Shown: positions 8,170 to 62,522, counted from the stretch's first letter. The stretch is DNA of 64,000 bases from Candidatus Cloacimonadota bacterium (GCA_009777575.1 WRLO01000001.1:97954-161953), one strand, 5' to 3'. Notes: generated by a model not told the origin, from the letters alone. Translations and numbers: made by a program.

Positions 8170-8199
8170 TTGACAAAAATACTGTCTTGAAAAAAATGT
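8170..8199 (+). promoter_or_regulatory. Putative promoter TTGACA-N21-TGT for the infC operon
   Basis: TTGACA 8170-8175, TG at 8197-8198; same geometry at 10 other intergenic sites. Confidence 0.6.
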
Positions 8200-8209
8200 C
8201 TCATAAATG

Positions 8210-8343
8210 AAGTTTTTTTGCTTCTACCTTACGGTTCCCGCTGAGGATATTGTCAGGTTTTAGGATAGATAAAGAGAGGTAACTATATTACTTTTCAGAT
8301 AGTTAATGAATCAGCGGGTATTCGAAAGAATACCCTTTTTTTT
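8210..8343 (+). promoter_or_regulatory. L20-leader-like attenuator upstream of infC-rpmI-rplT
   Basis: GCTTCTACCT...GTCAGGTT recalls the L20 leader; CCCGCTGA (8237-8244) can pair with TCAGCGGG (8311-8318), which overlaps terminator GGGTATTC-GAAA-GAATACCC-T8 (8316-8343). Confidence 0.6.
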
Positions 8344-8365
8344 GTAAAAAGAATGGAGGTTTGTT

Positions 8366-8980
8366 ATAATACGATATCGTAAAAGTAAAACAAAAGTGAA
8401 AGCAGTAATCCCAAAGGAGAGGATAAATGATGAGATTACTGCAGATGAAGTTCGTTTGATTGATCAAAACAATCAACAACTAGGAATTGTAAGCATTCAG
8501 AAGGCATTAATGTTAGCTGAAGAAGCAGAGTTAGATTTAGTGGAGGTGTCTCCGAATGCAGAACCTCCAGTATGTCGTATCCTTGAATTTGGGAAATTTT
8601 ATTACCAAAAAGAAAGAAAAAACCGAGAGGCTAAGAAAAAACAACATATTGTTTTATTGAAAGAGATTAAATTTGGTCCTAATACAGACGATCATGATTA
8701 TAATTTCAAGAAAAACAATGCGATACGGTTTTTAAAACAACACCATAAAGTAAAGTTTACTGTGCGTTTTCGAGGAAGGCAAATAGCTCATAAAGAGCTT
8801 GGATATGATGTATTGGAAAGGCTTACAAAAGATTTGGAAGAAATAGTCGATATTGAAATGAAACCAACAAGCGAAAAAAATTTGATATCCATGGTGGTTG
8901 TTCCTAAAAAAGACATCGACAAGATCCTTGGTATCAGTAGCGATGAGCAGATAGAAACAATTGAAGAAGAAACAGAATAG
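8366..8980 (+). CDS. infC: Translation initiation factor IF-3 (probable non-canonical ATA start)
   Basis: RINDEI...VRLID, LDLVEVSP, PPVCRI, KEIKF, HDY, FRGR motifs; SD GGAGGT at 8355-8360 is followed by in-frame ATA ATA (8366/8369), whereas GTG 8396 has no SD. Confidence 0.95.
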   Translation: MIRYRKSKTKVKAVIPKERINDEITADEVRLIDQNNQQLGIVSIQKALMLAEEAELDLVEVSPNAEPPVCRILEFGKFYYQKERKNREAKKKQHIVLLKEIKFGPNTDDHDYNFKKNNAIRFLKQHHKVKFTVRFRGRQIAHKELGYDVLERLTKDLEEIVDIEMKPTSEKNLISMVVVPKKDIDKILGISSDEQIETIEEETE

Positions 8981-9051
8981 GTAATTACTATCGCAGAGTT
9001 CTTAAATAAAATTTACCCGAAAGAATAATCGGAATATTAAATGGAGGATAA

Positions 9052-9246
9052 ATGCCAAAAATAAAATCCCATAGTGCAGCAACAAAAAGGTTTAAATTGA
9101 CAGGCACCGGCAAGATAAAAAGACACCATGCAGGTGTTACACATATTTTGACGAAAAAAAGTAGAAAGCGGAAGAGAAAATTGGGTTCTGCTACCTTAGT
9201 GGCGGAATGTGATGTAGCAAGAGTGAAAAGGATGCTTGTCTATTAG
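9052..9246 (+). CDS. rpmI: 50S ribosomal protein L35
   Basis: [21 protein letters not shown]...; operon context. Confidence 0.97.
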
Positions 9247-9402
9247 TTGTCATTTGACAATTGATACTAAGACCATAAAGCCAATCTATAAGAGAAAAAA
9301 ATCATAAATCAAGGTTGGCCCTCGTCTCGAAGAAGCAGTTCGAGCAAAATTATGAAAATGTGCCTCTTAAGAGGCACAGAAGTAAATTAGAAGGAGATAT
9401 TT

Positions 9403-9753
9403 ATGCCAAGAGCAACGAATAATGTCGCATTACACAGAAGACATAAAAAATTTTTGAAGGCAGCCAAAGGTTATCAGGGTGCAAGGAGTAGACTCTATAA
9501 AACAGCGAGAATGGCAGTAGAAAAAGGCTGGCTTTACTCATATCGTGATAGAAAACAAAGGAAAAGAATGTTTCGTAGGTTATGGATAGTTCGTATCAAT
9601 GCAGGCGCTAGAGCCAATGGACTGACCTATTCAACATTTATCAATGGTTTGAATAAATCAAATATCCAAATCAATAGAAAGATTTTAGCACACCTAGCAA
9701 TGCATGATCAGGTAGCTTTTTCAGCTTTGTGTAAGCAAGTAGCAGGATGTTAA
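9403..9753 (+). CDS. rplT: 50S ribosomal protein L20
   Basis: [39 protein letters not shown]. Confidence 0.97.
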
Positions 9754-9885
9754 ATATATTGTCTTAATGGATAGCTATATTTTCAAAGATTCAGAATTTA
9801 TTGTGAACAGTATTGTTAGTTATTTTCTTAAAAGTGAGGAAAATCGTTTTTGTAAAAGCAAAATCCTAAAATACGAGAAATCAAT

Positions 9886-10929: not shown

Positions 10930-10959
10930 GGCTAGGAAATTTGGTTTTGAGAAAAAGAA

Positions 10960-13485: not shown

Positions 13486-13489
13486 GATT

Positions 13490-13855
13490 ATGGAAGATTT
13501 TTTTTTAAAACCTCCAAGTGAGAAAACTCCAGAGCCCAAAACTCAGATGTCACTGGAAGATAAGATACAAAAACTAATCAAAATGTGTACTACTTACAAA
13601 GAAAAGTATGACGCTTTGAAAATAGATTTTGAAAAGACTTTGACAAGTAATATCGAATTGGAAGATGAAAAAACTCAAATTATTAGTGAGAAACATTTCT
13701 TAGAGCAAAGAGTTATACAACTAGATGCTGAGTTACAAGAAAAAATGTCAGAAATCGAAAAACTAAATGCTTCAAACAATGAGCTGGATAACATCACCAA
13801 AACAGCGGCTTTAAGAATAGATAAACTGCTATCTGAGTGTGAATTTGATATTTAA
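13490..13855 (+). CDS. Coiled-coil protein (ZapB-like position)
   Basis: Heptad-rich E/K/L sequence between pheT and zapA. Confidence 0.6.
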   Translation: MEDFFLKPPSEKTPEPKTQMSLEDKIQKLIKMCTTYKEKYDALKIDFEKTLTSNIELEDEKTQIISEKHFLEQRVIQLDAELQEKMSEIEKLNASNNELDNITKTAALRIDKLLSECEFDI

Positions 13856-13857
13856 AT

Positions 13858-14139
13858 ATGCCTGAAATGCAAATAGTTGATGTGTCGGTTCATGGCGTAA
13901 ATTTGAGATTGCTGAGTGAAGAGCCAGAAGAGGTAATTGCCCTTGCGAAAGAACTAGAAATGAACATAATTTCTTTGGTCAATCAGTATCCAAGGATAAA
14001 AGATATCAACCTTCTGACATTGGCTTGTCTAAAGGCTTTAGAAGATAATAAAAGACTGAAACTTGAAATTAAAGAGCTTGTCGCCGAAAGAGAAAAGCTA
14101 AATAATACGGTTCAAGGTTTTTTATATAGTATAGATTAA
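13858..14139 (+). CDS. zapA: Cell division protein ZapA family
   Basis: VDVSVHG-x-NLRL N-terminus, LLTLACL, C-terminal coiled coil; pheT-zapA-6S-rny synteny. Confidence 0.75.
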   Translation: MPEMQIVDVSVHGVNLRLLSEEPEEVIALAKELEMNIISLVNQYPRIKDINLLTLACLKALEDNKRLKLEIKELVAEREKLNNTVQGFLYSID

Positions 14140-14144
14140 ATATA

Positions 14145-14306
14145 GCCTGCGGTATTCGTGATAGGAAATTGTGATGGAACCAAAGTCCTATGGGGAATTG
14201 ATCCCTTGTTGCCATATAAACCTTTTGGAGAATGTGTCTACAGCAAGGTAGATGCCCACCTTATAAAAAAGGTTCAAAGGACAATACCTACACGATACTT
14301 GCGGGT
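14145..14306 (+). ncRNA. ssrS: 6S RNA
   Basis: Ends GCCTGCGGTATTCGTG / CACGATACTTGCGGGT pair; GAACC / GGTTC inner helix, GGGA and CCCACC flank a central bubble; canonical location between zapA and rny. Confidence 0.85.
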
Positions 14307-14358
14307 CCTATATTTTGAGTAGTTGTTTTCTAACAACTAAAAAAATGGAGGATAACCT

Positions 14359-15930: not shown

Positions 15931-16315
15931 TTTATTTCCAAATTGTAACTCCCTGCAAAATAGTCATGTGAAAGCCATGACATTTTCTGAAAGGTTTTAT
16001 TATCAGTCAGTTACGTTACAATGTCATTTTTCAAGGTGTCTGTTTCGATAATTTTATCTTCATAGAACTCTTCGCTCTATAACTCATCTAGTGGCTCGTT
16101 CATCAATGCTCGTAATTATGATATATAAGTTATTCCTTTTCTCATAGCAAAGTCGACAAATTCTACTGTTTTAATTTTGAATTCGTAGGCAAAGAACATC
16201 TCATAACAATATTCCTTAATTTCAAATTGTAAGTCAAGCAATATTTGATATGACGACTTTTATGTTTGCGATCTTTCTGGGTGTATATCATTACATAAAA
16301 CATACAGTTTATACT

Positions 16316-31448: not shown

Positions 31449-31652
31449 TCAACCACCAGCAAATATATGCATAATAGTAATTTCAGCTTTATCACATACA
31501 TAATAACTATCAAAGTCTGATTGTTGGATTATATTCTCCCCATGTTTAACAATAATAATAGGGAAAGTATAATTCAAAATCTTAAGTATTTCAGAAATAG
31601 ATATTTTATCAACATTAAACTCGTGATTTATGTTATTAATCTTTAAATTCAT
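31449..31652 (-). CDS. ThiS/MoaD-family sulfur carrier protein
   Basis: 67 aa from ATG 31652 (SD GGAGG), C-terminal FAGG. Confidence 0.88.
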   Translation of the reverse strand: MNLKINNINHEFNVDKISISEILKILNYTFPIIIVKHGENIIQQSDFDSYYVCDKAEITIMHIFAGG

Positions 31653-31666
31653 AAATCCTCCAAATG

Positions 31667-31696
31667 CCAAAAAATTTAAATAGCATTTTTTGTAAA
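31667..31696 (-). promoter_or_regulatory. Putative promoter TTTACA-N21-TGG for the ThiS-Fd-AOR operon
   Basis: TGTAAA at 31691-31696 and CCA at 31667-31669 on the + strand. Confidence 0.5.
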
Positions 31697-31717
31697 GTTG
31701 TTTTTTGAAAATAAAAC

Positions 31718-31747
31718 TTGACAAATTGAGTTCAATAATTTTTTTGG
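31718..31747 (+). promoter_or_regulatory. Putative promoter TTGACA-N21-TGG for the CDF gene
   Basis: TTGACA 31718-31723, TGG 31745-31747; divergent from the AOR promoter. Confidence 0.55.
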
Positions 31748-31894
31748 TGGAAGAGAGAGAAAAAAACTGGAAAATGATTTCAAATTCCCCCCCTAAATGT
31801 GTGGGGAACATAGCATAAGCCATAGCAATGTGTAAGGTAAAATATAATTAATATATTTTTTGGAGAGGGGTAAAAAAAGCCAGGAGGTAAACAA

Positions 31895-32746
31895 ATGGAT
31901 AAAACAAAGGGTGGCTACATAGCAGGAACGGTTTCTATACTCATCAATAGCTTGTTATTTATCGCAAAAATGTGGGTTTCAGTTATTACAGGCTCTATTG
32001 CGTTAGCAGCTGATGCGTGGCATACATTATCGGATTCTTTAAGCTCAGTCATAGTAGTTATAGCATCAAAATTGTCTTCCCGCAAAGCAGATAAAGAGCA
32101 TCCATTTGGTCATGGTCGTTGGGAACACATAGCCTCACTAACTATTGCGATGTTTTTAGGAATAATAGCATTTGATTTCATAAAAAATTCTATAACTCGA
32201 TTTAACAATGAGAAAACCATAATTTATGGATTTAGCGCAATTATTGTCACAATAGTTTCAATAATAGTGAAGGAATCTTTGACTCAATACTCATTTTATA
32301 TAGGCAGAAAAACAGGTAATTCGAGTGTTATGGCAGATGGTTGGCATCATCGCTCGGATGCATTATCTTCAGTTATAGTTTTAGTGGGTATATTATTTGC
32401 CAAAAAGTTTTGGTGGATAGACAGCGTATTGGGCATCATAATCGGTTTGATGATATTTTATGCAGTGTTTAAAATACTCAAAGAAGTAGTAACTAAACTT
32501 TTAGGTGAGGAACCATCCGAAAAACTAAAATCCGATATCATGAATGAAATAAAAAATAAATATGGAAACGACTTAAAAGCACACCATTTCCATATTCATG
32601 ACTATATAGTCCACAAAGAAATGACCTTTCATATAAGATTAGATAAGGAAATGACAATAGAGCAAGGGCATAAAATCGCGACAGAAATTGAAAATATTAT
32701 TAAGGATAAATATGAGATCGTAGCAACTACTCATATAGAGCATTAA
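31895..32746 (+). CDS. Cation diffusion facilitator (FieF-like)
   Basis: SIALAADAWHTLSD, HPFGHGR, ADGWHHRSD, GHKIA. Confidence 0.93.
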   Translation: MDKTKGGYIAGTVSILINSLLFIAKMWVSVITGSIALAADAWHTLSDSLSSVIVVIASKLSSRKADKEHPFGHGRWEHIASLTIAMFLGIIAFDFIKNSITRFNNEKTIIYGFSAIIVTIVSIIVKESLTQYSFYIGRKTGNSSVMADGWHHRSDALSSVIVLVGILFAKKFWWIDSVLGIIIGLMIFYAVFKILKEVVTKLLGEEPSEKLKSDIMNEIKNKYGNDLKAHHFHIHDYIVHKEMTFHIRLDKEMTIEQGHKIATEIENIIKDKYEIVATTHIEH

Positions 32747-32842
32747 AAAAAGATAGAAAAGACAAAAACAACTTTACTATTGACAAATTATGCTTCTTTT
32801 TTTTATTGTCACCCAATAATAATTTATAAGGATAATAAAATT

Positions 32843-33280
32843 ATGTCAAAACTTAATGATCAGTCCTCAATAAAAGAGATATACTCTTATATCTCAGAAA
32901 ATCAATATGTTTATTTTGCAACAACACTTGATTTACAACCTAAAATACGAACAATGGTATTATTTTTTTACAAAGGAAGATTTTTCTTTGTAACCTTTAC
33001 AAATGATTCAAAGGTAGCTCAAATAAAGAGTAATAAACTCTGTGAAGTATTGTTACCTATACAAGATGAAATCGGTAATAAAGGTCATATAAAGATGACT
33101 GGCAAAGCGAAGATATGCTCTGATCCTGATGCAAGGCAAGATGCTGAATATTATTGTTATTTCTTTGACCAATATTATGATGGTGCCGATGACCCTGATT
33201 TCTGTTTAATTGAGCTTGACTTTGAGTTTTATGAAATAATGAAACCTGGTGATAGTCATACAAAAAAATTTCATTCATAG
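32843..33280 (+). CDS. Pyridoxamine 5'-phosphate oxidase-like / general stress protein
   Basis: YFATT..QPKIRTM, SKVAQIKSN, MTGKAKI, DDPDFCLI; the TTG at 32780 is part of a promoter motif. Confidence 0.8.
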   Translation: MSKLNDQSSIKEIYSYISENQYVYFATTLDLQPKIRTMVLFFYKGRFFFVTFTNDSKVAQIKSNKLCEVLLPIQDEIGNKGHIKMTGKAKICSDPDARQDAEYYCYFFDQYYDGADDPDFCLIELDFEFYEIMKPGDSHTKKFHS

Positions 33281-33597: not shown

Positions 33598-33957
33598 ATG
33601 TTGAGATGCATATTAAAGAGTAAAATTCATAGAGCAGTTATTACTCAGACGGATTTGTATTATGTAGGCAGTATCACCATCGATAAGAATATGATGGATG
33701 CAGTCGGATTATTAGAGTATGAAAAGGTTGATATTTTTGATATCCAGAATGGAAATCGTTTTGAAACTTATGTGATAGAAGGCGAGCGAGGTTCTGGAAT
33801 CATTGGAATAAATGGAGCAGCTGCGAGATTAGTCCATTTAAATGATGAAGTGATAATAGTGTCCTACGCTCTACTAAATGAAGATGAAATATCAGAACAT
33901 CAACCCAAAATCATCGTTGTAAAGGAAAATAACAAAGATTTTGATATAGAGAATTGA
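33598..33957 (+). CDS. panD: Aspartate 1-decarboxylase
   Basis: LKSKIHRA, YVG|SITID autocleavage site, NGNRFETYVI, INGAAAR. Confidence 0.97.
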   Translation: MLRCILKSKIHRAVITQTDLYYVGSITIDKNMMDAVGLLEYEKVDIFDIQNGNRFETYVIEGERGSGIIGINGAAARLVHLNDEVIIVSYALLNEDEISEHQPKIIVVKENNKDFDIEN

Positions 33958-42369: not shown

Positions 42370-44349
42370 ATGAGATTATTTATTGTTATTTTGATGATTT
42401 TTATTTGTATAGGGAGTATTTTGGGGGTAACCCAATGGTTAAATGATGGCATCAGTGAATATATTTGGTTTACTAGTAGTAGCTCGCAAGATGTCAGACA
42501 GACAATAAGAAGTGGGATAGATTTATATCATCATTCTTATACTGATGATTTATTGTTTTATGGAACAGACAGATGGGCTGTAAATTTTATTATTAATGAT
42601 ATGATTAGTTTTCCTCCAGCCGATTCTGTTGATGTTGTATTCTTTGCAAATGCCATCAGTATTTTTATGCCTCAATCTATTTCTGCTGTGAGCATAGCTT
42701 TACATGAAAATGTTATTCCTCAGCATGATATAATAGTAACACAGCCCGGAACAATATTATTTAATACTACCATAAATCTCATAGCTGGCTGGAATACTAT
42801 ACCTTTTGAGACAGAAATATCTATAACAAATTCATGGATAGTTCTTGGATTTCCAGATAATATCACTGATATAGGTGTTTCAGCATCTTTAGGTGGTGGG
42901 AATCACAGTTATTTTTTTGACCGATTTGGACCTACGAGTGGTATTTTTAGAAACATGAGAAACAATGGTTTTGAAGCGGATTTATTATTTCATTTAGTGG
43001 GAAGTTTTGATAGACCAATTTTGATGATTGACATTTTAGATTTTTCTGTTCCAACTTTTATAAGTTATAATGAGCCATTTTTACCTTCTTTTAATATAAG
43101 AAATAATTCATCAATAAGTGTAAAAGATGTCTATGTTTCGCTTTCTATCAGTAATTCGACGAATAATTTTATTAGAACAGAAACTGTAAATATATCTTCA
43201 GAAATGCCAGCTGGTCAGATTTATTCTTCAGATATGATTGATTTTCGAGGAATAGACCTTCCGCAAGAATTTGCTCAATATGATATATCTATACAAACAG
43301 GATGCAATAATGAAGGTCACCCCTTTCTTAGAAGCTCAGCTTCTGCGATAACAAATGTCTTTGAGCATAAAAAAGAACGAAGTTTATTGGAAGTCTTTAC
43401 ACTATCATCAGACGCTTTCAATGAGAGTCTTCTTGATTTTATTGATACTCACACAGAGTCAGAAAATCTTGATATTTTGTTTTATTTCGCAAACTCTGTT
43501 GACCCCTTGCATACATTAGGAGCATATCAGAGACATATGCAATATCTCCATCAGGGGTTTCAGCATACTTATTTCAATGGCTATCTCAAGTATTCAAATT
43601 TCTCAGATTTGGATTTTTTTACGAAATTTAATGACAATTACATTCAAAGTCTGTCAGATAGAACATTTATAACCACTCATGGCTTTGACGCTTTTCTTGA
43701 AGATGAAATAAATCTCGTAATGGAATATACCATAATGAACGAAAACACAGACCTTTTGGTTATTCGAGACAACGATATAATCTTCAATGCAGCCTTTGTT
43801 CAACCTTTGACCATATCCGGAAGAAAGGTTAAGGTTGTTACTCAATATATAACTAACGGTATACCCGGATTTACTTTAAATTTACCCAAATCAGATAGTG
43901 GTTTAAAACTCATATTATCTTTTCCTGTATACAACATAAATCTATTGTCAGACAATAGTTATAATGACTTAGAGGTATTTGTTTGGTTCAATAGGAGAGC
44001 CACCAAAGAAATATATTATCATGATATATTTTCACTTGAAGATATAGATTTTCCTGAAAATATAAACCCTAATATCTCGATTATTCCAGAGGTCTTTCTT
44101 TATCCCAATCCAATTAAGCATACTGATGTTCTTAATATCGATTTTTTAAATTCAAAAGAGCAACAAAATGTGAGAATCTCTATATATAACATAAGAGGGC
44201 AAAGAATAGTATCAAGGGATTTGTATGAAAATTCTTTATCAATTGACTCATTGAATATCAATACAAGCGGTATATATTTTATGAGAGTTAATTGGACAGA
44301 AAGTGGTGTAGAAAGGAGTCATACAAGGAGATTTATGATTTTGAAATAG
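42370..44349 (+). CDS. Secreted protein with T9SS/FlgD-type C-terminal domain
   Basis: Signal peptide; C-terminal LYPNP...ISIYNIRGQ...SGIYF...RRFMILK. Confidence 0.82.
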   Translation: MRLFIVILMIFICIGSILGVTQWLNDGISEYIWFTSSSSQDVRQTIRSGIDLYHHSYTDDLLFYGTDRWAVNFIINDMISFPPADSVDVVFFANAISIFMPQSISAVSIALHENVIPQHDIIVTQPGTILFNTTINLIAGWNTIPFETEISITNSWIVLGFPDNITDIGVSASLGGGNHSYFFDRFGPTSGIFRNMRNNGFEADLLFHLVGSFDRPILMIDILDFSVPTFISYNEPFLPSFNIRNNSSISVKDVYVSLSISNSTNNFIRTETVNISSEMPAGQIYSSDMIDFRGIDLPQEFAQYDISIQTGCNNEGHPFLRSSASAITNVFEHKKERSLLEVFTLSSDAFNESLLDFIDTHTESENLDILFYFANSVDPLHTLGAYQRHMQYLHQGFQHTYFNGYLKYSNFSDLDFFTKFNDNYIQSLSDRTFITTHGFDAFLEDEINLVMEYTIMNENTDLLVIRDNDIIFNAAFVQPLTISGRKVKVVTQYITNGIPGFTLNLPKSDSGLKLILSFPVYNINLLSDNSYNDLEVFVWFNRRATKEIYYHDIFSLEDIDFPENINPNISIIPEVFLYPNPIKHTDVLNIDFLNSKEQQNVRISIYNIRGQRIVSRDLYENSLSIDSLNINTSGIYFMRVNWTESGVERSHTRRFMILK

Positions 44350-47800: not shown

Positions 47801-47954
47801 AAATCTTGACAAATTATAGATTGATAAAATAAATGGCAAAAAATAAATAAAAAATAAAAAACAAGGAGCTAAAAATGAAATTTCAAAATTGTAAAATCAG
47901 ACATATCGTAGTATTAGCTATGATTTTAATTATGATGACCATCTTGCTGGCATC
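47801..47954 (+). repeat. Direct repeat copy 1: promoter + RBS + signal-peptide cassette
   Basis: Closely matches 48561-48713; the last 41 nt (47914-47954) are identical. Confidence 0.9.
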
Positions 47955-48552
47955 GCTATCAGTAAATTCCAATTCTGTTGTTTTTCAAGAAAATGAACCA
48001 AAAAGAACATGGAATGAAAGAGAGATTATTATGGATTGGGAATTAACTCAAGCAGATGGAACTATTCTCAAAGTTGAGCGAGTCCGTGGTGGATTCAATA
48101 ATCCCACCCATTTTTACAGAATTAACGGGTACACGCTTCAATATGATCGTAATATTCGTTCTTGGTGTTGGGCATATCAAGATGAAACAGGACGTTTAAG
48201 GGCTACAGAATATCCTGCACATCTATATGATCCAGAAGAACTTGGGTTTGAAAAAGATATAAGATACTCTGAAGAGGTTACAATAAAAATAATTCAAGAG
48301 ATATTAGAAGCATTTATAGAGTCAGATCTTCCGGGCGTGCGACAAAGACCTAGGACTATAATAAACATGAGAAATACACCCAATAGATGTCCTACAAATG
48401 GCGAAGTTCAATCTATTGTTATCTATATTAGTCTTGATGATCAAGGACCTCATGAGTTTCCTACAGATGAATATGTAATGAAATTTGATGCATTAAATGA
48501 ATATTATCAAGCCGTATCTTATAGCAAATTACAGATTACATCATATTTGTAA
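47875..48552 (+). CDS. Secreted protein equal to the N-terminal (pro) region of the downstream M6 protease; no HExxH
   Basis: Shares TQxDGT, NGxT, CWAYQD, HLYDPExLGxxKDIR, CPT, YYxAVSY with 48634-51225. Confidence 0.75.
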   Translation: MKFQNCKIRHIVVLAMILIMMTILLASLSVNSNSVVFQENEPKRTWNEREIIMDWELTQADGTILKVERVRGGFNNPTHFYRINGYTLQYDRNIRSWCWAYQDETGRLRATEYPAHLYDPEELGFEKDIRYSEEVTIKIIQEILEAFIESDLPGVRQRPRTIINMRNTPNRCPTNGEVQSIVIYISLDDQGPHEFPTDEYVMKFDALNEYYQAVSYSKLQITSYL

Positions 48553-48560
48553 TATAAAAT

Positions 48561-48713
48561 AAATCTTGACAAATATTGTTTAATAAAATAAATGGCAAAA
48601 AGTAAATAAAAAATAAATAACAAGGAGCTAAATATGAAAATCCAAAATTGTAAAATCAGACAAATCGTAGCTTTAGCTATGATTTTAATTATGATGACCA
48701 TCTTGCTGGCATC
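48561..48713 (+). repeat. Direct repeat copy 2: promoter + RBS + signal-peptide cassette
   Basis: See copy 1; TTGACA 48566, TG 48593. Confidence 0.9.
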
Positions 48714-51225
48714 AAGGGATACGGAAGTTTATCCCGAAATTGTACTAGATAATATGTGGGTAAATGAAGAACTTAAGGAATTAGTTGCTCTTTTTTCAAG
48801 AACACAACCGGATGGGACTCTAATTGAGTTTGAATACGTAATGAGCGATAGTAGAAATCTAGGAGATGAATTTCTCAGAAAAAACGGTTTCACTATAGTT
48901 TTAGATGAAGATTCACAATACTATTGCTGGGCATATCAAGACTCACTTGGGCAATTAAGCTCGACTGGTAAGCCTATTCATCTCTACGATCCAGAAATGC
49001 TTGGATTGGATAAAGACATAAGATTATCCATAGAGAGAGCAGATGAACTAAATAGAAGACGAAGAGAATCTATTAAAGAATTCAATAGATATGGCAGTAG
49101 GAAAATTAATAACAATTTGTTAAATCATACAATCCAAAGTGATACTACAAGTGTTGAATGTCCTACAGAAGACGAAATAATATCTGTTGTTATGTATATA
49201 AGGTTTAATGATCAAGAAGATCAAGATATTCCTCAAGAAATAAAAACAAAATTTTATTATCTTATGGATTATTATTATGCTGTATCTTATACAAATCTGT
49301 CAATAACTCCTGTGTTTGCTTCCTATTTTATACCAGATATTTCATCTGATTATTTTTTGGAAAGTGATATTGAACTAAAACGGAAAAAAGAAGCTATTTT
49401 AGTTTCATTGATACTCAATGCAGTCAGTGATTTTTTAAATAATCTAAGTGTTGTTAACAATGTTACAATAGTTTTGAGAGGAGATTTAGGATATCCTAAC
49501 GACACTCTTTATGGTTATCATATTACCAATTTTCATAATTATTTAAATATAAATCATCCCAAATTGGCTAAACCTATGATCAATGGCAAGAAACTCGATA
49601 GCTTTATTTTACATTATGAGAATGTCGTTTTAGATGAATTTATTGGTAATTATATCTTGGCACACGAGTTTGGACACGAGCTTGGATTTCCAGAATTGTA
49701 TTCAGAACTTCACTCTTACTCTCATCCCGTAGGCCCATGGGACATAATGTCTGATTGGATATCTGGATATTTTGTATCTCCTCCATCAATGTCAGCATAT
49801 ATAAAGCATAAATACACAAATTGGTTAAAAGATTTTAATATCCCTACTATTACACCAGTTGTTGGTGCAACCTATACAATAAAACCTCTTATGAGAGATG
49901 TATTTACTTTGGGAGATACTATAGCTATCAGAATAAATATACCTAATGTCGAAAATGAATATTTTATCATAGAAAACCGACTTAAAACTTCAAATGCTGT
50001 ATCAGATGGTAGTTTACCTGATTCTGGCTTATTGATTTATAGAGTAAATGAAGATGTAAAAACAAAACCTGAAACAGATGAAATATATAGCGGTAATTTG
50101 TTTGGGTCTACAAGCGTGAATGGGACACCTTTTGATCTATATCTATATAGACCTTATGGTATGTTCGTAAATGATATATTACAAACAGGCAATATTTTAG
50201 GTGCTGCTTTTAATGCCGATAGTTTACTTGTTTTCAAAGATGATACAAACCCAAGCGCTTTTTTATCCAATGGTAGCTTTTCAGGTTTAAACATAAGAAT
50301 CAATCACACTAGTGGATCGAGATCGAATGATGATAGTATTTCATTTACCTTTGTAGGTGAACCTTTTGTCTATATCGTTTATGCTCAAACTCCTTATGGC
50401 TTACAAGATGCCATAAATCTAGTGGAAGATGGTGGGACGATATATCTCACTCAAGATTTTCACTTACATTATTTAGATACATGGTATGAGATTACTGAGC
50501 CTATCAATCTCTACGGAAAATCGATAACTATCGAAAGTATAAAAATAAACCCCAGTAGTTCTGTGAATGTGATATTTTATGAACCAGTTCTGTTTAGCGA
50601 TGTTTATGGTTCATTGACTTTCAAAAATATTGATTTGAGGTTTATTAATACATTGACTATCAATGAAACCAGTATCAATCTCGACAATGGTCATATCTCG
50701 CTTTACAATGATTTGCTTAATAATAGCCTTGAATACAATTTTACCGGAAATACAGAAACACCAAATTATATTGATTTTTGCTCTATTTCGAGATTAAATT
50801 TGTTACAAACCAGCACCTTGAATATAACCCATTATGAACTTAATACACAAAACACTAACAATATCTATATAGCACCGGGTGCGACATATAACGGACCAGA
50901 TGACAGTCCTCAACCAGCTATAGAGGATGAGGAAAATCTTCCAATGGTATATAATTACGAACTTTGGAATTTTCCCAATCCCTTCAATCCAGATACCAAT
51001 ATAGCGTTTTCCATGGCATCATCTGGACATGTAAATATAGAAATATACAATATCAGAGGTCAAAAAGTGTTGTCCCTTGTGAATGAGTTTTATGAAATGG
51101 GCAGACATGTCGTTGTCTGGAATGGACGCGATGAGAATGGCAGAACAGTTGGTAGTGGTGTATATCTGTATAGAATGAGCACAGATGAGTTTACTGAGAC
51201 AAAGAGGATGGTGTTGCTGAAGTAA
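48634..51225 (+). CDS. M6-family (immune inhibitor A-like) metalloprotease with FlgD/T9SS-type CTD
   Basis: AHEFGHELGFPELY, VGPWDIMS, EYFIIENR, LPDSGLLIYRVN; C-terminal NFPNPFNPDT...SGVYLYRM...KRMVLLK. Confidence 0.88.
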   Translation: MKIQNCKIRQIVALAMILIMMTILLASRDTEVYPEIVLDNMWVNEELKELVALFSRTQPDGTLIEFEYVMSDSRNLGDEFLRKNGFTIVLDEDSQYYCWAYQDSLGQLSSTGKPIHLYDPEMLGLDKDIRLSIERADELNRRRRESIKEFNRYGSRKINNNLLNHTIQSDTTSVECPTEDEIISVVMYIRFNDQEDQDIPQEIKTKFYYLMDYYYAVSYTNLSITPVFASYFIPDISSDYFLESDIELKRKKEAILVSLILNAVSDFLNNLSVVNNVTIVLRGDLGYPNDTLYGYHITNFHNYLNINHPKLAKPMINGKKLDSFILHYENVVLDEFIGNYILAHEFGHELGFPELYSELHSYSHPVGPWDIMSDWISGYFVSPPSMSAYIKHKYTNWLKDFNIPTITPVVGATYTIKPLMRDVFTLGDTIAIRINIPNVENEYFIIENRLKTSNAVSDGSLPDSGLLIYRVNEDVKTKPETDEIYSGNLFGSTSVNGTPFDLYLYRPYGMFVNDILQTGNILGAAFNADSLLVFKDDTNPSAFLSNGSFSGLNIRINHTSGSRSNDDSISFTFVGEPFVYIVYAQTPYGLQDAINLVEDGGTIYLTQDFHLHYLDTWYEITEPINLYGKSITIESIKINPSSSVNVIFYEPVLFSDVYGSLTFKNIDLRFINTLTINETSINLDNGHISLYNDLLNNSLEYNFTGNTETPNYIDFCSISRLNLLQTSTLNITHYELNTQNTNNIYIAPGATYNGPDDSPQPAIEDEENLPMVYNYELWNFPNPFNPDTNIAFSMASSGHVNIEIYNIRGQKVLSLVNEFYEMGRHVVVWNGRDENGRTVGSGVYLYRMSTDEFTETKRMVLLK

Positions 51226-51293: not shown

Positions 51294-51461
51294 ATTATCC
51301 TCCAAGCAAATTGGGGTACAAAAAATCTTTTTTTCTAGTACATAATATTTTAGTTCTCTGACTACCTCACGAATACCTAAACCCACTTTTTTCAAAAATT
51401 CTTGACATATAAGCTATACTATATTTATTGGTGTAAAAAGATATTTTTTTGTGAGGTAATA

Positions 51462-52529
51462 ATGGAGTATACAAAATTACTAAAGGATTTGACGCTATTG
51501 TCAGGTGTTTCAGGTAATGAAAAACCTGTTAGAAAATTTATGGAAAACGAGTTAAAAGATATATCTGACAATATGTTAAAAGATAATCTTGGCTCTGTAG
51601 CTTTTGAGTTTAAAGGCACTAGTTGTTCTCCAAACATACTGGTAGTTGGGCATTTGGATGAAATTGGATTTATGGTTCATAGTGTTTCAAGCAAAGGTCT
51701 GATAAAATTTACTAATCTTGGTGGTTGGGATCCACGAACCCTAATGTCCTCTCCTGTAGAAATCATCAATAGAGAAGGTGAAAAAATCATTGGTTTGATA
51801 GGCTCTGTTCCTGTTCATCATTTAAAAGATACATCAGGAAAGCTTAGTATTGATGACATGTATATTGACATCGGTGCAGAAAGCCCTGAAGAAGTGAGAG
51901 AAATTTTCAAGATAAGGAAAGGAGATTTCATAGTTCCTGTCCCACATTATGCTCTGATAGAAAAGAAAAATATCATGATTTCTAAAGCCTTTGATGATAG
52001 GGTAGGAATTGCAATAGCAATCGCAACTGGAAAACATTTTAAAGACAAAAATCATCCTAATACAATCTTCTGTGCTGGTTCAGTTCAAGAAGAAGTAGGG
52101 ACGCGTGGTGCTCAGACAATATCCCAATTAATCAAACCAGATATCGCAATAGTTCTTGAAGGCTCTCCCGGAGATGATTTCCCCACCAACAAAGAGGAAA
52201 TGCAAGCTAAAATGAATGCTGGAGTTCAAATCAGGATGATAGACCCTACGATGATTTGCAACCCAGATCTTGTAAATTTTGCTATTGATGTAGCAGAAGA
52301 ATTAAAAATACCATATCAATTGGCGGTTCGTAAATCTGGTGGAACAGATGCGGGAAAGATTCATGTCAGCGGACTTGGTGTTCCTACCATTGTATTAGCT
52401 GCCCCTGTGAGATATGCTCATAGTCACAATGGAATGCTGAGTTTGAAAGATTTTCAAGCTACATTGGATTTGACGATAGCATTGATAGAGAGGATGAACT
52501 CAGATTTCTTTTTAGAATTGATTAAATAG
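51462..52529 (+). CDS. M42-family aminopeptidase
   Basis: GVSGNE, GHLDEIG, LGGW, KAFDDRVG, VQEEVG, GGTDAG, RYAHS. Confidence 0.94.
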   Translation: MEYTKLLKDLTLLSGVSGNEKPVRKFMENELKDISDNMLKDNLGSVAFEFKGTSCSPNILVVGHLDEIGFMVHSVSSKGLIKFTNLGGWDPRTLMSSPVEIINREGEKIIGLIGSVPVHHLKDTSGKLSIDDMYIDIGAESPEEVREIFKIRKGDFIVPVPHYALIEKKNIMISKAFDDRVGIAIAIATGKHFKDKNHPNTIFCAGSVQEEVGTRGAQTISQLIKPDIAIVLEGSPGDDFPTNKEEMQAKMNAGVQIRMIDPTMICNPDLVNFAIDVAEELKIPYQLAVRKSGGTDAGKIHVSGLGVPTIVLAAPVRYAHSHNGMLSLKDFQATLDLTIALIERMNSDFFLELIK

Positions 52530-57037: not shown

Positions 57038-57075
57038 AAACTTCATTTGAGGTTTATAAATAATTTGTTATTTGC

Positions 57076-59067
57076 TTAAAACCTCGCCATATCAATAATC
57101 TGCATTATTTCTTCATATATATTTATATATTTTTTATATGTATCCATATCTCCTCTTTTTTGTGCTACCACTATCAATTCTATGAAGATGCTCATGATAG
57201 AATTATATTTACTAATTGAAATATTTTTATATCTAAATAAACCTATGATAGTATCTGTGTCAATCTTATCAATTTTAACATTTGTCCTCGCTGAAAAATA
57301 CAAAACATCGTTACCAACCCCAAGCAATGGTAAGGCTCTAAAAGTAGTATTTAACTCAGAATCATATCTTACATTATCCCATAAAATATCTTTATATATC
57401 TCCTCAAGTTCAAAATCTTTTTTTTCTTGAGCCTTTCTGTATAAAGAAAAAGCATTACAAATTAAATATTGTTCAGGACAAATAGGGATTTGATTTTGAT
57501 TTAACCAGTAGATTGTATTGATATTGCCTGAAGCATCAATTTCTTTTTTATAGGTATGTTTCAATAACTGTAATTCCATTTCGACATCATTATTTTCAGG
57601 GTCATACAGTAAACATTGAGATAACAAAACAATAACTAAGATGTTTTTATCTAAAGCTTTAAAAATATTTGCAAGATTTTGATAAGCTTGAGCTATATCT
57701 TTACTATTTGATGCTGACTTTAGACAAAGTATGTTAGGGTCAACTTCTTGTGGAATTATATTTGATAAAATGATTTGTTTTTCTTGATTTTCTTTTTGAG
57801 ATAAGTTAAAGTTATTTATATCAAGTAATATATCAGCATTGATGGGGTTAAATACTAAAGCCTTTTCTAAGCAATCTTTGGCGCGGTCAATCTCTTTAAA
57901 TTCAATTAATATTTTTGCAAAATAGCGATATGCAGTTGGATAATCCTCAGGAATGTTGATTATTTTTTTTACGGGTCTGAATATAGTATGATATATTCTT
58001 TCTTCTAAGATGTTTTTAAATTTTAAATACCTTGTAGTAGAAATATCTCTATATTTATTTAATTTTTCTATTTTTTTGATCAATGGCTCTATTAAGTTTA
58101 TAGCATCATTAAAACTACCTAAACTAAATTTATATATAGTGCTTTCGATAATGGTATCAATATTTCTTTTAATAAAACCATCTATATTTATTTCTTCTTC
58201 AGAGAGTTCTATTTCTCCAGTCAGATTATATCTTCTTTGCATAAGACTTTGAGCAAATTCTATGTTGTTTGCTTCTAATGCCTCTTGACAAAGCAGATTT
58301 ATTGCAGCGACTACTAATTGACTTCCTCCTAATAACACTGAATTATATTTTTCAAAACAATTCTCCAATGTTTTTTGGTCATTATCCTTGAATAATTGTG
58401 GAACTCTATAATAGAGTTCTTGATAAATAGTCTCCATACTTTTGTCATCGGGATCAAATTCTTGAGAGTAATATAACAAAGTGTAAGCAGTTTCATAAAT
58501 CTTATCTTCATAAAGTGACCAAGCCAGAAATCTATAAAAAGCTGCTATCTTTTGCTTTGAATAACAGAAATCTAAACCTTTAAAACAAAATTTTTTTAAT
58601 TCATTTTTATAGAGTAGAAATTTTTCATTATTTTTTTCAAGTGAAGATTCTAAGTCTTTCATCATCAAAACCTTATAGAATTCACACATAGCTAAAATGA
58701 CATCTACATTCACAGGATTTAAGTCATAAGCTTTGTTCAAGGCATCTTTTGCTTTATGAAATTCGTCAATTTTTATTAATAATTTTCCGTAAAGGCTGTA
58801 AGCAGAAACAAAATCTTCTTTTAAATGTTTTATTTCTTTTGGAGTAGAATATTTCAATTTAAGAATTTTTTCTTCAAGTGCATTATTAAAATATTTATAA
58901 ACACTGTTTTTGTCTTCCTTTTGAGATGTTATTTCATCATCAAGGGTTTTTATTAATGGTTCAATGATTTTTAATGCAAGTGAAATATCACCTTTACGAA
59001 CCTCTCCTAAAAAACTTTGCAATGTCTCAGCTATACCAAAATGCCTTTTTAAAGTGTTTATGTTCAG
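57076..59067 (-). CDS. TPR-like helical repeat protein with internal duplication (possible CTG start at 59067)
   Basis: Two homologous halves (IEPLIK...FxNxLEExI...AKDxLxKAxxxNPxN); SD GGAGG 5 nt before an in-frame CTG; ORF track starts at TTG 59022. Confidence 0.75.
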   Translation of the reverse strand: MNINTLKRHFGIAETLQSFLGEVRKGDISLALKIIEPLIKTLDDEITSQKEDKNSVYKYFNNALEEKILKLKYSTPKEIKHLKEDFVSAYSLYGKLLIKIDEFHKAKDALNKAYDLNPVNVDVILAMCEFYKVLMMKDLESSLEKNNEKFLLYKNELKKFCFKGLDFCYSKQKIAAFYRFLAWSLYEDKIYETAYTLLYYSQEFDPDDKSMETIYQELYYRVPQLFKDNDQKTLENCFEKYNSVLLGGSQLVVAAINLLCQEALEANNIEFAQSLMQRRYNLTGEIELSEEEINIDGFIKRNIDTIIESTIYKFSLGSFNDAINLIEPLIKKIEKLNKYRDISTTRYLKFKNILEERIYHTIFRPVKKIINIPEDYPTAYRYFAKILIEFKEIDRAKDCLEKALVFNPINADILLDINNFNLSQKENQEKQIILSNIIPQEVDPNILCLKSASNSKDIAQAYQNLANIFKALDKNILVIVLLSQCLLYDPENNDVEMELQLLKHTYKKEIDASGNINTIYWLNQNQIPICPEQYLICNAFSLYRKAQEKKDFELEEIYKDILWDNVRYDSELNTTFRALPLLGVGNDVLYFSARTNVKIDKIDTDTIIGLFRYKNISISKYNSIMSIFIELIVVAQKRGDMDTYKKYINIYEEIMQIIDMARF

Positions 59068-59391
59068 AATTTCCTCCCATATTTAGTATCTATAATCATG
59101 AAAATATATTTTTTTTTATCCAATATTTTTTTTTTAACTTTTTTGTCAAGGTTATTGACTGAATATCATTTTTACCTAAATATACATAGCGATAATAAGG
59201 AGATGAGAAATTTCAATTACAGTCTGGAAAAATTTCTATGAGAGGCATTTTGAAGACTGATAACATAATGAATGTTGACAAAATAAACCCTTTGAAAAAA
59301 ATGGAATTATATAGTGGTTTCATTGGACATTAAAACTATTGCAGGGTTAGGCAATGCAATAATGTCGCACAAAAAAATAAAAGAGGTAATT

Positions 59392-61998
59392 ATGAAATAC
59401 TTTTTTTTAGTATTGATTTTGTTTCTATCTGTTAACACCATGTTATATTGTGTTATTGATAAATACGAAATGTCAGCTATAGCTGAAATGATGGAAAGTG
59501 TCGGTATGACATTGGATGATGTGAATTTTGCAAAAAGTTGGTCTCCGTCTGCATTTACGATACCTATAATGCAGACTTGCCTTGATACGCCTTGGGCATT
59601 TCCAGAATTTGTAGCTGAAATAAAAGAAGAGGTGTTGAAAAGAGAATTTGCCAGTTTTTATAATTATATCACAGATATTGTGTATAAAAATTATTTAAGC
59701 GAGTCAATGGAAAATGGAAATGATATTTATTTAGAGCAAACATATCTAGATGAATTAGATTTAAGATTTTCAAACATAAGAAGACCCCGCGAAATAATGA
59801 AATATGCAGAATTTGTATATGAAATGTCGCAAAATTATCTAAAACAAAGCTTTCAGAACTTGACGCCTGAAGAAATTGAATATATAAGAAAATTTCTCTA
59901 TTCAAACACTGTTGGTGGTAGTGAAGATGCAGAAAGTTATGACTTTATAAATGAGATTATTGATTTACCAGAGATAGAAAATTATCTACAATTTCACATA
60001 GACTTAATAAATAAAATTGATTTTACATCCCTCGTTTTATCTGGTAGATACTTCTATGCTGGGATGGAAAAATTTTATCAAAACCGTCTTCATTCTGATA
60101 AAGAAATAGTAGGTAATCTTTTTTCAAATATTTCTTTCAATAAGCCAGTGAGATACAAGTCAAAATTCGGTATGATGATTGTAGGAACAACTGGAAATGA
60201 TGTTTATGGAAGCTCGCAATCGCTCGATGATGATTATGTATTTATCTTTGACCCGGGTGGTAATGACACATATACATTAAATATGTCAACTGATATGCAT
60301 CGCCCATTTTTGGCGATAATAGACCAATCAGGTGATGATATATACCGCAATGCACAATTTGGTCAATTTTTTAATGCGTTATTTGGAAATATATTTCATT
60401 TTGATGGTGGCGGAAATGACCATTATTTTGGAGGAGATTTAGCTTTTTCAGGAAATCTTGGAAGTATGATTTCTATAGATTTTCAAGGTTGGGATAGCTA
60501 TATAGTAGGCTCAAGATCATTAGGTTCTGGCCATTTGGGTGTGGGTATAGTTGTAAATATAGGAGGTAATGACTATTATTATGGCACTATGTTTACGCAA
60601 GGAATGGGTGGAACGCTTGGTTTTGGTGCGTTAATTGATTTAAAAGATGGAATATGGAACAATGATTGTTATCATGCGGGTGGGAAATGGACTGATAGTC
60701 TCCGAGATCAAAGTGATTATTATGCAATGGCTCAAGGTTTTGGTTTTGGTCTAAGACCTAGTATAGCAGGTGGAATAGGATTATTATTTGATGAAAGCGG
60801 AAATGACAAATATAATGGGGGAGTATTCTCACAAGGAGTATCATATTGGTATGCAATGGGAATATTAATAGATTTAGAAGGAAACGACTTTTACAATTCA
60901 GCATGGTATCCTCAAGGCAGTGGAATACATTTGTCAGTTGGCTTTCTTTATGACGAGTCTGGCGATGATCATTATTTCTCAAAAAGAGGGCCAGGACAAG
61001 GAGCTGGACATGATTGGGGAGTAGGTTTTCTTGTAGACCGTGGTGGGAATGATACTTATAGCGTTGATGGCGGCAATGGAATGGGTAGAGCAAATTCTGT
61101 TGGAGTATTTGTTGATAGTGGTGGAAATGATAGGTATGAACGGATAGGATACTCAAATTATGGAAGTTCACACCATAATTTTGAAGATAGAGGTTCTGGG
61201 AATATTGGAATTTTTTTAGATGCAGGAGGGCATGATATCTATTCTGACCCTAAATGCGGTAATAATGCTCAATGGGTAGAAGGTGTTTATGGAATAGGTA
61301 GGGATATGGAACTTGAGCGTCCTTCTATCGAAAAAGCAATTTCAGAGGTTATCGAAATAAATGATTTAGTATCAGAAGAAGAAAATCTGTTTCCAGAGGA
61401 CATCTCGATTCATGATTTATTTATGCTTGCTTGTCATGGTAGACACCCAACCAATACGAGGGCAAAAGAACTTCTAACAGAAAGAGAGGCAGAATTTGCA
61501 GACTATTTTATGGAACATCAGTTGCAATCAAATGATATAATGGTTCAAATTACTATAGCTGAAATTATACCAAAATTCAAACTAATTCATGAAAGATTAG
61601 GTGAGGGATTAAGTAGAGAAAATACTGTAGCTATATCAAATACAATATTTTATATAGGTTTGATAGGTGAAGTATCCTACCTAGATACTTTTGAAGAAAT
61701 GCTTAATGATGAAAAAAGTGTGAGATTTACAAATTCTATCATTCAATCTCTAGGTAGAATGAATATGAATTCATCATCAGATTTGGAAAATGATACAAAT
61801 AGAAATGAATATGTAAAAAGAATCATCGACCTTATCGCACCTTTTATAAATCACGAAAGCGCATATAGAAGAACAATTGCTGCCCGTGCTTTAAAAAACA
61901 TAAACACTTCTGAAAGTCTTGATTTATTATTTTCAATGAGAAACGATTCTGATTTTATGATTAGATCTATGATAATTATGATGGAGAAAGATGATTAG
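59392..61998 (+). CDS. Secreted protein with Gly/Asp-rich (DxxGND.Y) repeats and C-terminal HEAT-like repeats
   Basis: Signal peptide MKYFFLVLIL after SD GAGG; more than 10 G[ND]DxY repeats; RRTIAARAL / DSDFMIR helical C-terminus. Confidence 0.78.
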   Translation: MKYFFLVLILFLSVNTMLYCVIDKYEMSAIAEMMESVGMTLDDVNFAKSWSPSAFTIPIMQTCLDTPWAFPEFVAEIKEEVLKREFASFYNYITDIVYKNYLSESMENGNDIYLEQTYLDELDLRFSNIRRPREIMKYAEFVYEMSQNYLKQSFQNLTPEEIEYIRKFLYSNTVGGSEDAESYDFINEIIDLPEIENYLQFHIDLINKIDFTSLVLSGRYFYAGMEKFYQNRLHSDKEIVGNLFSNISFNKPVRYKSKFGMMIVGTTGNDVYGSSQSLDDDYVFIFDPGGNDTYTLNMSTDMHRPFLAIIDQSGDDIYRNAQFGQFFNALFGNIFHFDGGGNDHYFGGDLAFSGNLGSMISIDFQGWDSYIVGSRSLGSGHLGVGIVVNIGGNDYYYGTMFTQGMGGTLGFGALIDLKDGIWNNDCYHAGGKWTDSLRDQSDYYAMAQGFGFGLRPSIAGGIGLLFDESGNDKYNGGVFSQGVSYWYAMGILIDLEGNDFYNSAWYPQGSGIHLSVGFLYDESGDDHYFSKRGPGQGAGHDWGVGFLVDRGGNDTYSVDGGNGMGRANSVGVFVDSGGNDRYERIGYSNYGSSHHNFEDRGSGNIGIFLDAGGHDIYSDPKCGNNAQWVEGVYGIGRDMELERPSIEKAISEVIEINDLVSEEENLFPEDISIHDLFMLACHGRHPTNTRAKELLTEREAEFADYFMEHQLQSNDIMVQITIAEIIPKFKLIHERLGEGLSRENTVAISNTIFYIGLIGEVSYLDTFEEMLNDEKSVRFTNSIIQSLGRMNMNSSSDLENDTNRNEYVKRIIDLIAPFINHESAYRRTIAARALKNINTSESLDLLFSMRNDSDFMIRSMIIMMEKDD

Positions 61999-62048
61999 TT
62001 AGATAAAACTTCTTTTCAAGTGACAGAGGTGATACTAAACCTCGTTTA

Positions 62049-62364
62049 GAGAGTAGCGTCAGATTTCCATCTGACGATTGATATACATACTCGAATTAGA
62101 GAGTAGCGTCAGATTTCCATCTGACGATTGATATACATACTCGAACTAGAAAGTAGCGTCAGATTTCCATCTGACGATTGATATACATACTCGAACTAGA
62201 AAGTTAGAGTTACATTTAAACAGAGTAGCGTCAGATTTCCATCTGACGATTGATATACATACTCGAACTAGAAAGTTAGAGTTACATTTAAACAGAGTAG
62301 CGTCAGATTTCCATCTGACGATTGATATATATACTCGAACTAGAAAGTTAGAGTTACATTTAAA
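62049..62364. repeat. Tandem array of 5 REP/BIME-like palindromic units
   Basis: GTAG-CGTCAGAT-TTCC-ATCTGACG at 62053, 62103, 62153, 62225, 62297 (periods 50, 50, 72, 72) with near-invariant linkers. Confidence 0.95.
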
Positions 62365-62522
62365 CCAGGAATAGTGTAAGATATATTATTCTGATGAATA
62401 AAAATTAAGAATAGTATTATCAAAAAATAGTTGACATAAAACCCTCATTTAAAATCATGGCATTTATAGAAAAAAATAGGCGATAATGTTAATAAATCGT
62501 CCAGATTATTGAGGATATAAAA

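Follow-up and report, generated by a model that had tools for sequence, protein, structure and literature searches.

A TTGACA promoter architecture with a conserved -7 T and little T-12/A-11 signal in Candidatus Cloacimonadota

The T-12/A-11 base pair is held to be the most important one for promoter opening. A GGGA-type discriminator, an element of sigma region 1.2, was reportedly described in Thermus and Escherichia coli by Feklistov and by Haugen in 2006, and the primary sigma factor of Bacteroidota is short and lacks region 1.1. Excerpts of a survey of 49 species describe -35 and -10 elements conserved everywhere but in Bacteroides thetaiotaomicron, a spacer layout in which an AT tract beside the -35 element is followed by a GC-enriched patch, and a sigma-70 spacer range quoted as 15-19 bp (PMC12641261). 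In excerpts of a preprint on 24 species with mapped transcription start sites (ProFinder), the -10 element shows stronger conservation than the -35 one and TATAAT lies upstream of 67% of promoters. Non-template T-7 and G-6 are recognised base-specifically by sigma in solved open complexes, according to the consulted part of PMC4593229, and the Bacteroidota sigma-A consensus is given as -33 TTTG and -7 TAnnTTTG in excerpts of two further papers (PMC7366714, PMC2483708). Here we examine a recurrent promoter element, TT(G/T)ACA followed after about 21 nt by TG, in 64,000 nt of DNA from a Candidatus Cloacimonadota bacterium (GCA_009777575.1, WRLO01000001.1:97954-161953) and in the genome to which this stretch belongs. 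The stretch, hereafter the window, has 29-36% G+C and lies on contig C1 of a 3.76-Mb, 198-contig, 91%-complete assembly.

Cloacimonadota are uncultured and common syntrophs of anaerobic digesters. The literature searched held no experimental or computational account of their promoters and no description of this architecture for the phylum; it likewise held nothing relevant on Bacteroidota sigma-A or RNA polymerase (RNAP) structure, or on promoters and start sites in other phyla of the Fibrobacteres-Chlorobi-Bacteroidetes (FCB) superphylum.

The motif across the genome and in the window

Spacing between TTGACA and TG was compared in intergenic and coding DNA. Coding DNA was masked with 2655 crude open reading frame (ORF) calls of at least 100 aa, which cover 83% of the genome and leave 637 kb as intergenic. 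TTGACA occurs 1082 times in intergenic and 2628 times in coding DNA. Intergenic copies were followed by TG at N21 in 274 cases (25%) and at N22 in 244 (23%), against 20-94 (2-9%) at all other spacers from 10 to 35. The coding copies had no N21/N22 peak and displayed just a 3-nt (codon) periodicity, at 4-10%. T[GT]G lay at offset 27 from 328 of the 1082 intergenic copies, compared with 129 at offset 26 and about 12-50 at other offsets, and TTGACA-N21-TKG was found 483 times in the whole genome against 44 for a reversed-pattern control. Enrichment of TG at a fixed distance was thus clearly positive. The original prediction had set this distance at exactly 21 nt, which is correct for its 11 window sites; genome-wide, N21 and N22 are about equally frequent.

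An unseeded motif search was performed by expectation maximisation (EM) with zero or one occurrence per sequence (ZOOPS), at width 40, on 1311 upstream regions and from 12 random starts. Eight starts reached the same 40-nt motif, AAAaAattc-TTGACA-AAAA...T.AAaaT..T-g-G-c, which had a posterior above 0.8 in 465 of the 1311 regions. The other four gave a C-tract-containing motif whose share among the upstream regions was fitted at about 0.2. The predicted pattern was therefore recovered with no seed; the observation is real, holds genome-wide and is statistically overwhelming.

The motif behaves as a promoter by orientation, by distance to genes and by its location in front of stable RNA genes. 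Of the sites in tandem gaps, 129 were co-directional and 8 antisense, while divergent gaps held 107 sites in 83 kb and convergent gaps 10 in 62 kb. The distance from the conserved T to the ORF start had its mode at 20-50 nt. Nineteen of 28 tRNA transcription units carried the motif upstream, as did the genes for signal recognition particle (SRP) RNA, RNase P RNA and tmRNA and, in the window, infC. Because the motif serves these genes, it represents a housekeeping promoter and not a specialised regulon. We read the sites as housekeeping promoters of this genome that are probably recognised by its single group-1 sigma factor, RpoD, and we put the probability of this reading at about 0.7.

Within the window, a sequence check located all 11 predicted TT(G/T)ACA-N21-TG sites on their predicted strands, together with two variants, one with 22 nt before TG (47806) and one with TA replacing TG (1937). 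TTKACA-N21-TG matches 21 times on both strands; dinucleotide shuffles gave a mean of 7.7 (sd 2.9, maximum 17), and 0 of 100 reached 21. When the genome-trained EM matrix was scanned over the window at a threshold of at least 12 bits, it returned 13 sites, which are exactly the 11 sites and the two variants:

1937..1967, + strand: promoter-like variant TTGACA-N21-TAA, upstream of ORF 2106-4742; 20.1 bits
8170..8200, + strand: promoter with -35 TTGACA at 8170-8175 and T27-G28-T29 at 8197-8199, upstream of infC (8396-8980); 26.3 bits
31666..31696, - strand: promoter with -35 TTTACA at 31691-31696 and TGG at 31667-31669, heading a ThiS-like ORF; 25.8 bits
31718..31748, + strand: promoter TTGACA-N21-TGG, divergent from 31696 and upstream of a CDF transporter gene (31895-32746); 27.6 bits
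32780..32810, + strand: promoter TTGACA-N21-TGT, upstream of a small ORF (end at 33280) whose likely ATG lies about 86 nt past TTGACA; 22.6 bits
33540..33570, + strand: promoter with -35 TTTACA, N21 and TGG, upstream of panD (33598-33957); 26.3 bits
42174..42204, + strand: promoter TTGACA-N21-TGT, upstream of a gene (42370-44349) for a protein with a type IX secretion system (T9SS) C-terminal domain; 27.0 bits
47806..47836, + strand: promoter variant TTGACA-N22-TGG (A27 T28 G29), upstream of ORF 47875-48552; 16.2 bits
48566..48596, + strand: promoter TTGACA-N21-TGGC, upstream of 48634-51225 (M6-like domain and T9SS tail); 28.2 bits
51402..51432, + strand: promoter TTGACA-N21-TGG, upstream of an M42-type aminopeptidase gene ending at 52529; 28.6 bits
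59119..59149, - strand: promoter TTGACA-N21-TGG, upstream of a TPR protein gene (57076-59022); 22.8 bits
59275..59305, + strand: promoter TTGACA-N21-TGG, upstream of ORF 59314-61998; 19.8 bits
62431..62461, + strand: promoter TTGACA-N21-TGGC, upstream of a K+/H+ antiporter gene starting at 62523; 34.3 bits, the top score in the window

The infC gene was assigned via TIGR00168. At site 31696 on the - strand, GGAGG begins 8 nt and an ATG lies 17 nt past the conserved T; as the ThiS match spans residues 61-124 of a long ORF, the true ThiS-like start lies downstream of this promoter. The longest-ORF starts of 31449-31823 (-), 32780-33280 (+) and 51402-52529 (+) extend through their own promoters, and two of these three ORFs "start" at the TTG of TTGACA, as at 51402, where the TTG is the -35 box itself. 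Their true starts are downstream ATGs behind GGAGG-type sites.

Three of the listed sites (8170, 32780 and 42174) carry TTGACA-N21-TGTCA, an inverted repeat, and the genome encodes two sigma-70-family ORFs besides RpoD (241 and 249 aa). Both facts would fit recognition by another sigma factor or by an accessory DNA-binding protein, for example a global regulator of TTGACA...TGTCA-like half sites, instead of RpoD alone. We regard this as highly improbable. TGTC is present in only 37 of the 465 EM calls, on which count a palindromic operator was also rejected; the motif is strictly gene-directed and serves housekeeping genes; and TTGACA is the canonical target of an RpoD-type region 4.2, which RpoD alone carries here, the region 4.2 sequences of the two further ORFs being different.

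Two neighbouring genes, 47875-48552 and 48634-51225, have near-identical promoters, leaders, Shine-Dalgarno sites and first codons (47806-47900 versus 48566-48660), which suggests that the head of a secreted-protein gene was duplicated locally. An Rfam scan of the window at gathering thresholds gave no match. A 6S RNA-like match to RF00013 at 14141-14311 (+), with 43.9 bits against a gathering score of 46.4, has an ORF that ends at 14139 on one side and the RNase Y gene (14359) on the other; no TTGACA promoter was found within 90 nt upstream of it.

Register of the motif and its -10 region

Position 0 is the T that opens TTGACA. An UP-like tract rich in A, from -9 to -5, precedes a near-invariant -35 element (TTGACA exactly in 391 of the 465 EM calls, TTGACT in 40), so that the very strong -35 of the original prediction was borne out. 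The spacer has AAAA at 6-9 and then a G/C-enriched patch at 11-13. Positions 17-26 are A/T-only, with T favoured at 18 and 24, and are followed by T at 27 (0.88), G or T at 28 (0.47 and 0.41), G at 29 (0.64) and a pyrimidine at 30. Nothing is conserved beyond position 32.

The N21 class reads T27 G28 G29 (0.54) C30 (0.52) and the N22 class T27 (0.74) T28 G29 T30 (0.63). Both classes keep T18, A20-23, T24, Y30 and C32 at identical absolute positions; therefore a single register, T27-K28-G29-Y30, is preferred to two spacer classes. A mixture of N21 and N22 promoters, in which T-7/G-6 is kept and spacers are 16 or 17 bp, is the less preferred alternative and would count against our reading. Free-position EM on the 3' block gave A-w-w-T-w-w-T(0.97)-K-K-Y, with 278 sites beginning at offset 21 and 85 at offset 22. 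In canonical terms the best register has a 16-bp spacer, a -10 element reduced to WWTWWT in which only T-7 is strongly kept, and then K-6 and G-5.

Positions 22-27 exclude G and C and show no signal for T-12/A-11. A and T account for 0.56 and 0.42 of the EM calls at position 22 and for 0.59 and 0.40 at position 23, much as at neighbouring positions. The hexamers ending at the conserved T in the window (AAAAAT, TTTATT, AATATT, TTTTTT, AATCAT and ATAAAT) were confirmed, and the commonest among the 465 calls were TTTTTT (47), AATAAT (36), AAAAAT (31) and TATTTT (29). TAnnnT was present in 67 of 442 EM calls (15%) and perfect TATAAT in 3, with a mean match to TATAAT of 3.28/6; TA occupied positions 22-23 in 18% of 518 promoter-like sites. 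In the 19 tRNA promoters the hexamers included AAAAAT (7), TTTTTT (4) and TAnnnT (3). TGG was the commonest ending of stable-RNA promoters, and TGGC occurred in 6 of the 19 tRNA promoters. The predicted absence of a conserved T-12/A-11 pair thus held up in the larger alignment, from which no conventional TAnnnT emerged. A weak trace was seen at spacer 16, where TAnnnT follows 119 of the 1082 intergenic TTGACA copies against a background of about 40; no other spacer from 15 to 19 rose above background.

Start sites were approached through proxies. The 5' ends of tRNAs in the nine closest units lie 10, 11, 13, 13, 13, 13, 14, 14 and 15 nt past T27, with none closer, and the SRP RNA model begins 7 nt past it. 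ATGs opening ORFs of at least 80 aa occur at +7 (3) and +8 (4), with most neighbouring distances at 0-1 but 3 each at +0 and +10, and Shine-Dalgarno sequences begin at +5 to +8 at the earliest. These distances point to a transcription start about 7-8 nt past T27, and they fit T27 as T-7 (+/-1), K28 as -6, G29 as -5 and a 16-bp spacer. The conserved T therefore behaves as the T-7 that the original prediction took it to be. At about a dozen motif sites an ATG lies 6-13 nt past the T and no Shine-Dalgarno sequence is present, which suggests that this lineage has mRNAs that are leaderless or nearly so.

The same proxies bear on whether TG might itself be the transcription start, a "start element" with a pyrimidine at -1 and a purine at +1, and the real -10 element lie further upstream in the A/T tract. 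T-G-Y does fit the YRY/YRR start triplets reported across bacteria in excerpts of PMC12641261, and TAnnnT is enriched at spacers 12 and 13. Such promoters would, however, need an 11-13-bp spacer, which the 15-19 bp range given in those excerpts does not allow (PMC12641261); the start of the SRP RNA model and the ATGs of leaderless type fall 7-8 nt past the T and not at it; and TAnnnT at spacers 12 and 13 accompanies the T/G signature without replacing it. We give this explanation hardly any weight.

Several other candidates were tried and rejected. TG as an extended -10 element (TGnTATAAT) disagrees with the lack of conservation past position 32 and with tRNA 5' ends 10-15 nt past the T, too close for a hexamer and a discriminator; TG at 19-20, the classical extended -10 place, was found in just 10 of 442 calls. 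A sigma-54 -24 box is not indicated, as TGGCAC begins at 27 in 15 of 442 calls and none has N5-TTGC (the rpoN gene was not searched for). No ORFs follow that would make TG a start codon, and the spacers are too diverse for a dispersed repeat. An extra TTG at 17-19 is present in many stable-RNA promoters (tRNA promoters such as G000:C16, C19 and C54, and also window site 8170). TG at 18-19, present in 29 of 442 calls, would in the favoured register lie one base upstream of the classical extended -10 TG.

Canonical sigma-70 promoters share with these sites the TTGACA -35 element, a compatible 16-bp spacer, a conserved T-7 and an A-rich UP-like tract, and the probable reader of these sites is likewise a group-1 sigma factor with all conserved regions (1.2, 2.3/2.4, 3.0 and 4.2). 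A G just past the hexamer sits at the base-specific G-6 contact of sigma (PMC4593229, excerpts), and the AT tract and GC-enriched patch of the spacer match the layout excerpted from the 49-species survey (PMC12641261). What differs is that conservation is inverted: the -35 element is near-invariant and T-12 and A-11 are at background, so the canonical TAnnnT 15-19 bp past the -35 element does not characterise this genome, although T-7 is kept (0.88). The discriminator element likewise has a G directly past T-7 on the non-template strand; here, in contrast, the G belongs to the consensus of the whole genome and is more informative than A-11, and a T-6 G-5 variant is equally common.

When the TTG of the Bacteroidota -33 element is aligned on the TTG of TTGACA, TAnnTTTG falls on positions 22-29. 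Its 3' T-T-G is what roughly half of the sites here conserve, with TTG at 27-29 in 126 of 442 calls and TTTG at 26-29 in 69, whereas full TAnnTTTG is found at 22-29 in just 12 and TGG endings number 101. The -35 element here is a full TTGACA, with T preceding the TTG in only 27 of 442; the sigma factor is long and E. coli-like, and Shine-Dalgarno sequences are used. Both phyla have T9SS cargo proteins, a trait of the FCB superphylum according to abstracts.

The primary sigma factor and promoter opening

The original prediction proposed that the primary sigma factor was rewired to read the -35 element and a fixed-distance TG. RpoD (580 aa) was the sole ORF to pass TIGR02393, with 388 bits against a cut-off of 354. 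Its best 80 relatives among species-representative genomes, at 68-85% identity, belong with few exceptions to Cloacimonadota/Cloacimonetes, and T9SS sorting domains in two window proteins are consistent with an FCB-superphylum organism. The protein was aligned with the E. coli sigma-70 sequence from solved structures. Regions 2.3/2.4 keep Y425, Y430, W433, W434, Q437, T440 and R441 (E. coli numbering), region 3.0 keeps H455 and E458, and region 4.2 keeps R584, E585, R588 and Q589, residues which we take to be promoter contacts. Only conservative changes were seen (F419Y, E420D, R423K and S442A, with M102L and R103K in region 1.2), and E420D, R423K and S442A are presumably also found in Bacillus subtilis SigA, a TATAAT reader. 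The long N-terminal region is present, its residues 9-198 being aligned with residues 10-211 of the E. coli protein. Identical sigma blocks occur in five other Cloacimonadota genomes, some of which (G025, G019 and G054) have little TG signal.

Rewiring of the sigma factor is thus not borne out: the residues that contact the -10, extended -10 and -35 elements are the canonical ones, the A-11 pocket is intact in the alignment, and the same blocks serve relatives with weak TG. Nor would T-7/G-6 constitute a new code, both being base-specific sigma contacts already described in the excerpted PMC4593229. As the contacts of RpoD are conserved and T-7 and G-6 were already known, the architecture amounts to a shifted weighting of known elements with no new reading head, and it resembles the 3' end of Bacteroidota TAnnTTTG.

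No clear motif was seen in the region upstream of rpoD itself (L001), which contains a tandem repeat. The repeat, of about 105 nt with C-runs, lies directly upstream of the gene (L001:200-480, G000:C60), and a 'ccccccc...gtgtgggg' stretch past promoter 31718 (about 31790-31815) resembles it; together with the C-tract-containing motif of the EM search, they may represent a dispersed repeat family.

Recognition of these sites by RpoD, which we infer from sequence, could proceed as follows. Sigma region 4.2 would dock on the perfect -35 element, the A/T-only -10 region would melt easily, and the non-template strand would be captured via the T-7 pocket together with the contacts of sigma region 1.2 and the discriminator G, transcription starting about 7-8 nt past the T. 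Opening would presumably take place without a conserved A-11.

Several points weigh against this account. The gene calls are crude, being longest ORFs of at least 100 aa, and EM favours a perfect -35 element, such that its conservation is overestimated and promoters with a weak -35 are under-sampled. The -7, -6 and -5 assignments rest on proxies accurate to about 1 nt. At spacers 12 and 13 the smaller TAnnnT excesses go together with the T/G signature, and we read them as spacer periodicity. A at -11 reaches just 0.58-0.59, 14% of sites have no A in the hexamer, and TA at -12/-11 is present in only 18% although the sigma factor keeps the A-11 pocket and the T-12 readers Q437 and T440. The model gives no account of how opening is nucleated on the roughly 40% of promoters that lack A at -11.

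A helper of the CarD type for weak -10 boxes was considered and rejected. PF02559 (the CarD / Mfd RNAP-interacting domain) had no match in the assembly, although 10 of 14 control genomes match; at 91% completeness this is no proof of absence. Taken at face value, the null would mean that neither CarD nor a recognisable Mfd RNAP-interacting domain is present.

An alternative, the original prediction in its strong form, is that RNAP itself is rewired, so that the holoenzyme no longer needs A-11/T-12 and reads the -35 element plus T-7/G-6(-5), with the cause outside the classic contacts or in beta/beta'. T-12/A-11 is indeed uninformative even in the strongest promoters (TAnnnT in 3 of 19 tRNA promoters), the mean match to TATAAT is low at 3.28/6, and small sigma differences exist (F419Y, M102L/R103K); the lack of a PF02559 match to a CarD-type helper points the same way, and excerpts of Kuo et al. 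suggest that non-contact residues may shape promoter differences between clades (PMC12641261). We nevertheless consider a rewired RNAP quite unlikely, given that all residues known to us as -10 readers are conserved, that genomes G025, G019 and G054 combine identical sigma blocks with weak TG, and that modest TAnnnT and ANNNT excesses persist at the canonical place. The E420D, R423K and S442A changes are, we believe, shared with the TATAAT-reading SigA.

A further, speculative extension of recognition by RpoD is that RNAP opens these promoters without dedicated nucleation at A-11, through the combination of perfect -35 element, A/T-only melting region and capture of T-7 and the discriminator G, and that the architecture is intermediate between the canonical promoter and the Bacteroidota -33/-7 promoter. 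We think this unlikely as it stands.

Spread within Cloacimonadota and implications

The motif was counted in 61 sampled Cloacimonadota genomes; the counts cover whole genomes, coding noise included, and the relatives are non-independent. N21 exceeded the spacing control N25 at least 2-fold in 37 of the 61 genomes and at least 3-fold in 30, and the excess was below 1.3-fold in 7. The median N21/N25 ratio was 3.9 in the largest family (f3, 28 genomes), and the ratio was 4.9 in the genome under study. In G002, from another order (40% G+C), 70 intergenic TTGACA copies were available, of which 11, 13 and 7 had TG at N21, N22 and N23 against about 2 elsewhere, and no TAnnnT peak was found in the 400 kb examined. 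G025 has TTGACA upstream of genes 55 times in sense and 9 times in antisense orientation, with a weak T/G signal shifted by about 1 nt. The pattern was found 174 times in G060 (55% G+C) against 9 for the reversed control; the G060 logo was not used, as its 339 kb hold only 85 intergenic TTGACA copies on contigs chosen for holding matches. At the level of the phylum, therefore, the architecture is a tendency whose strength varies and which is most pronounced in the genome under study.

The consensus of TTGACA, 21 nt and T-K-G makes it possible to annotate operon heads, 5' untranslated regions, leaderless genes and small RNAs in metagenome-assembled genomes of Cloacimonadota, and supplies parts for heterologous expression or future genetics. 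It also poses a puzzle of mechanism, in that the sigma factor is fully canonical and yet the promoters of this lineage lack T-12/A-11: either the T-12/A-11 rule is relaxed in A/T-only contexts, or there are determinants beyond the contact residues known so far. Since the Bacteroidota -7 motif has a similar 3' end, a comparison of the FCB phyla could test how the unusual promoter of Bacteroidota arose. If the architecture is indeed intermediate, the G-ended -7 element would be ancestral to the FCB superphylum and older than the loss of sigma region 1.1.

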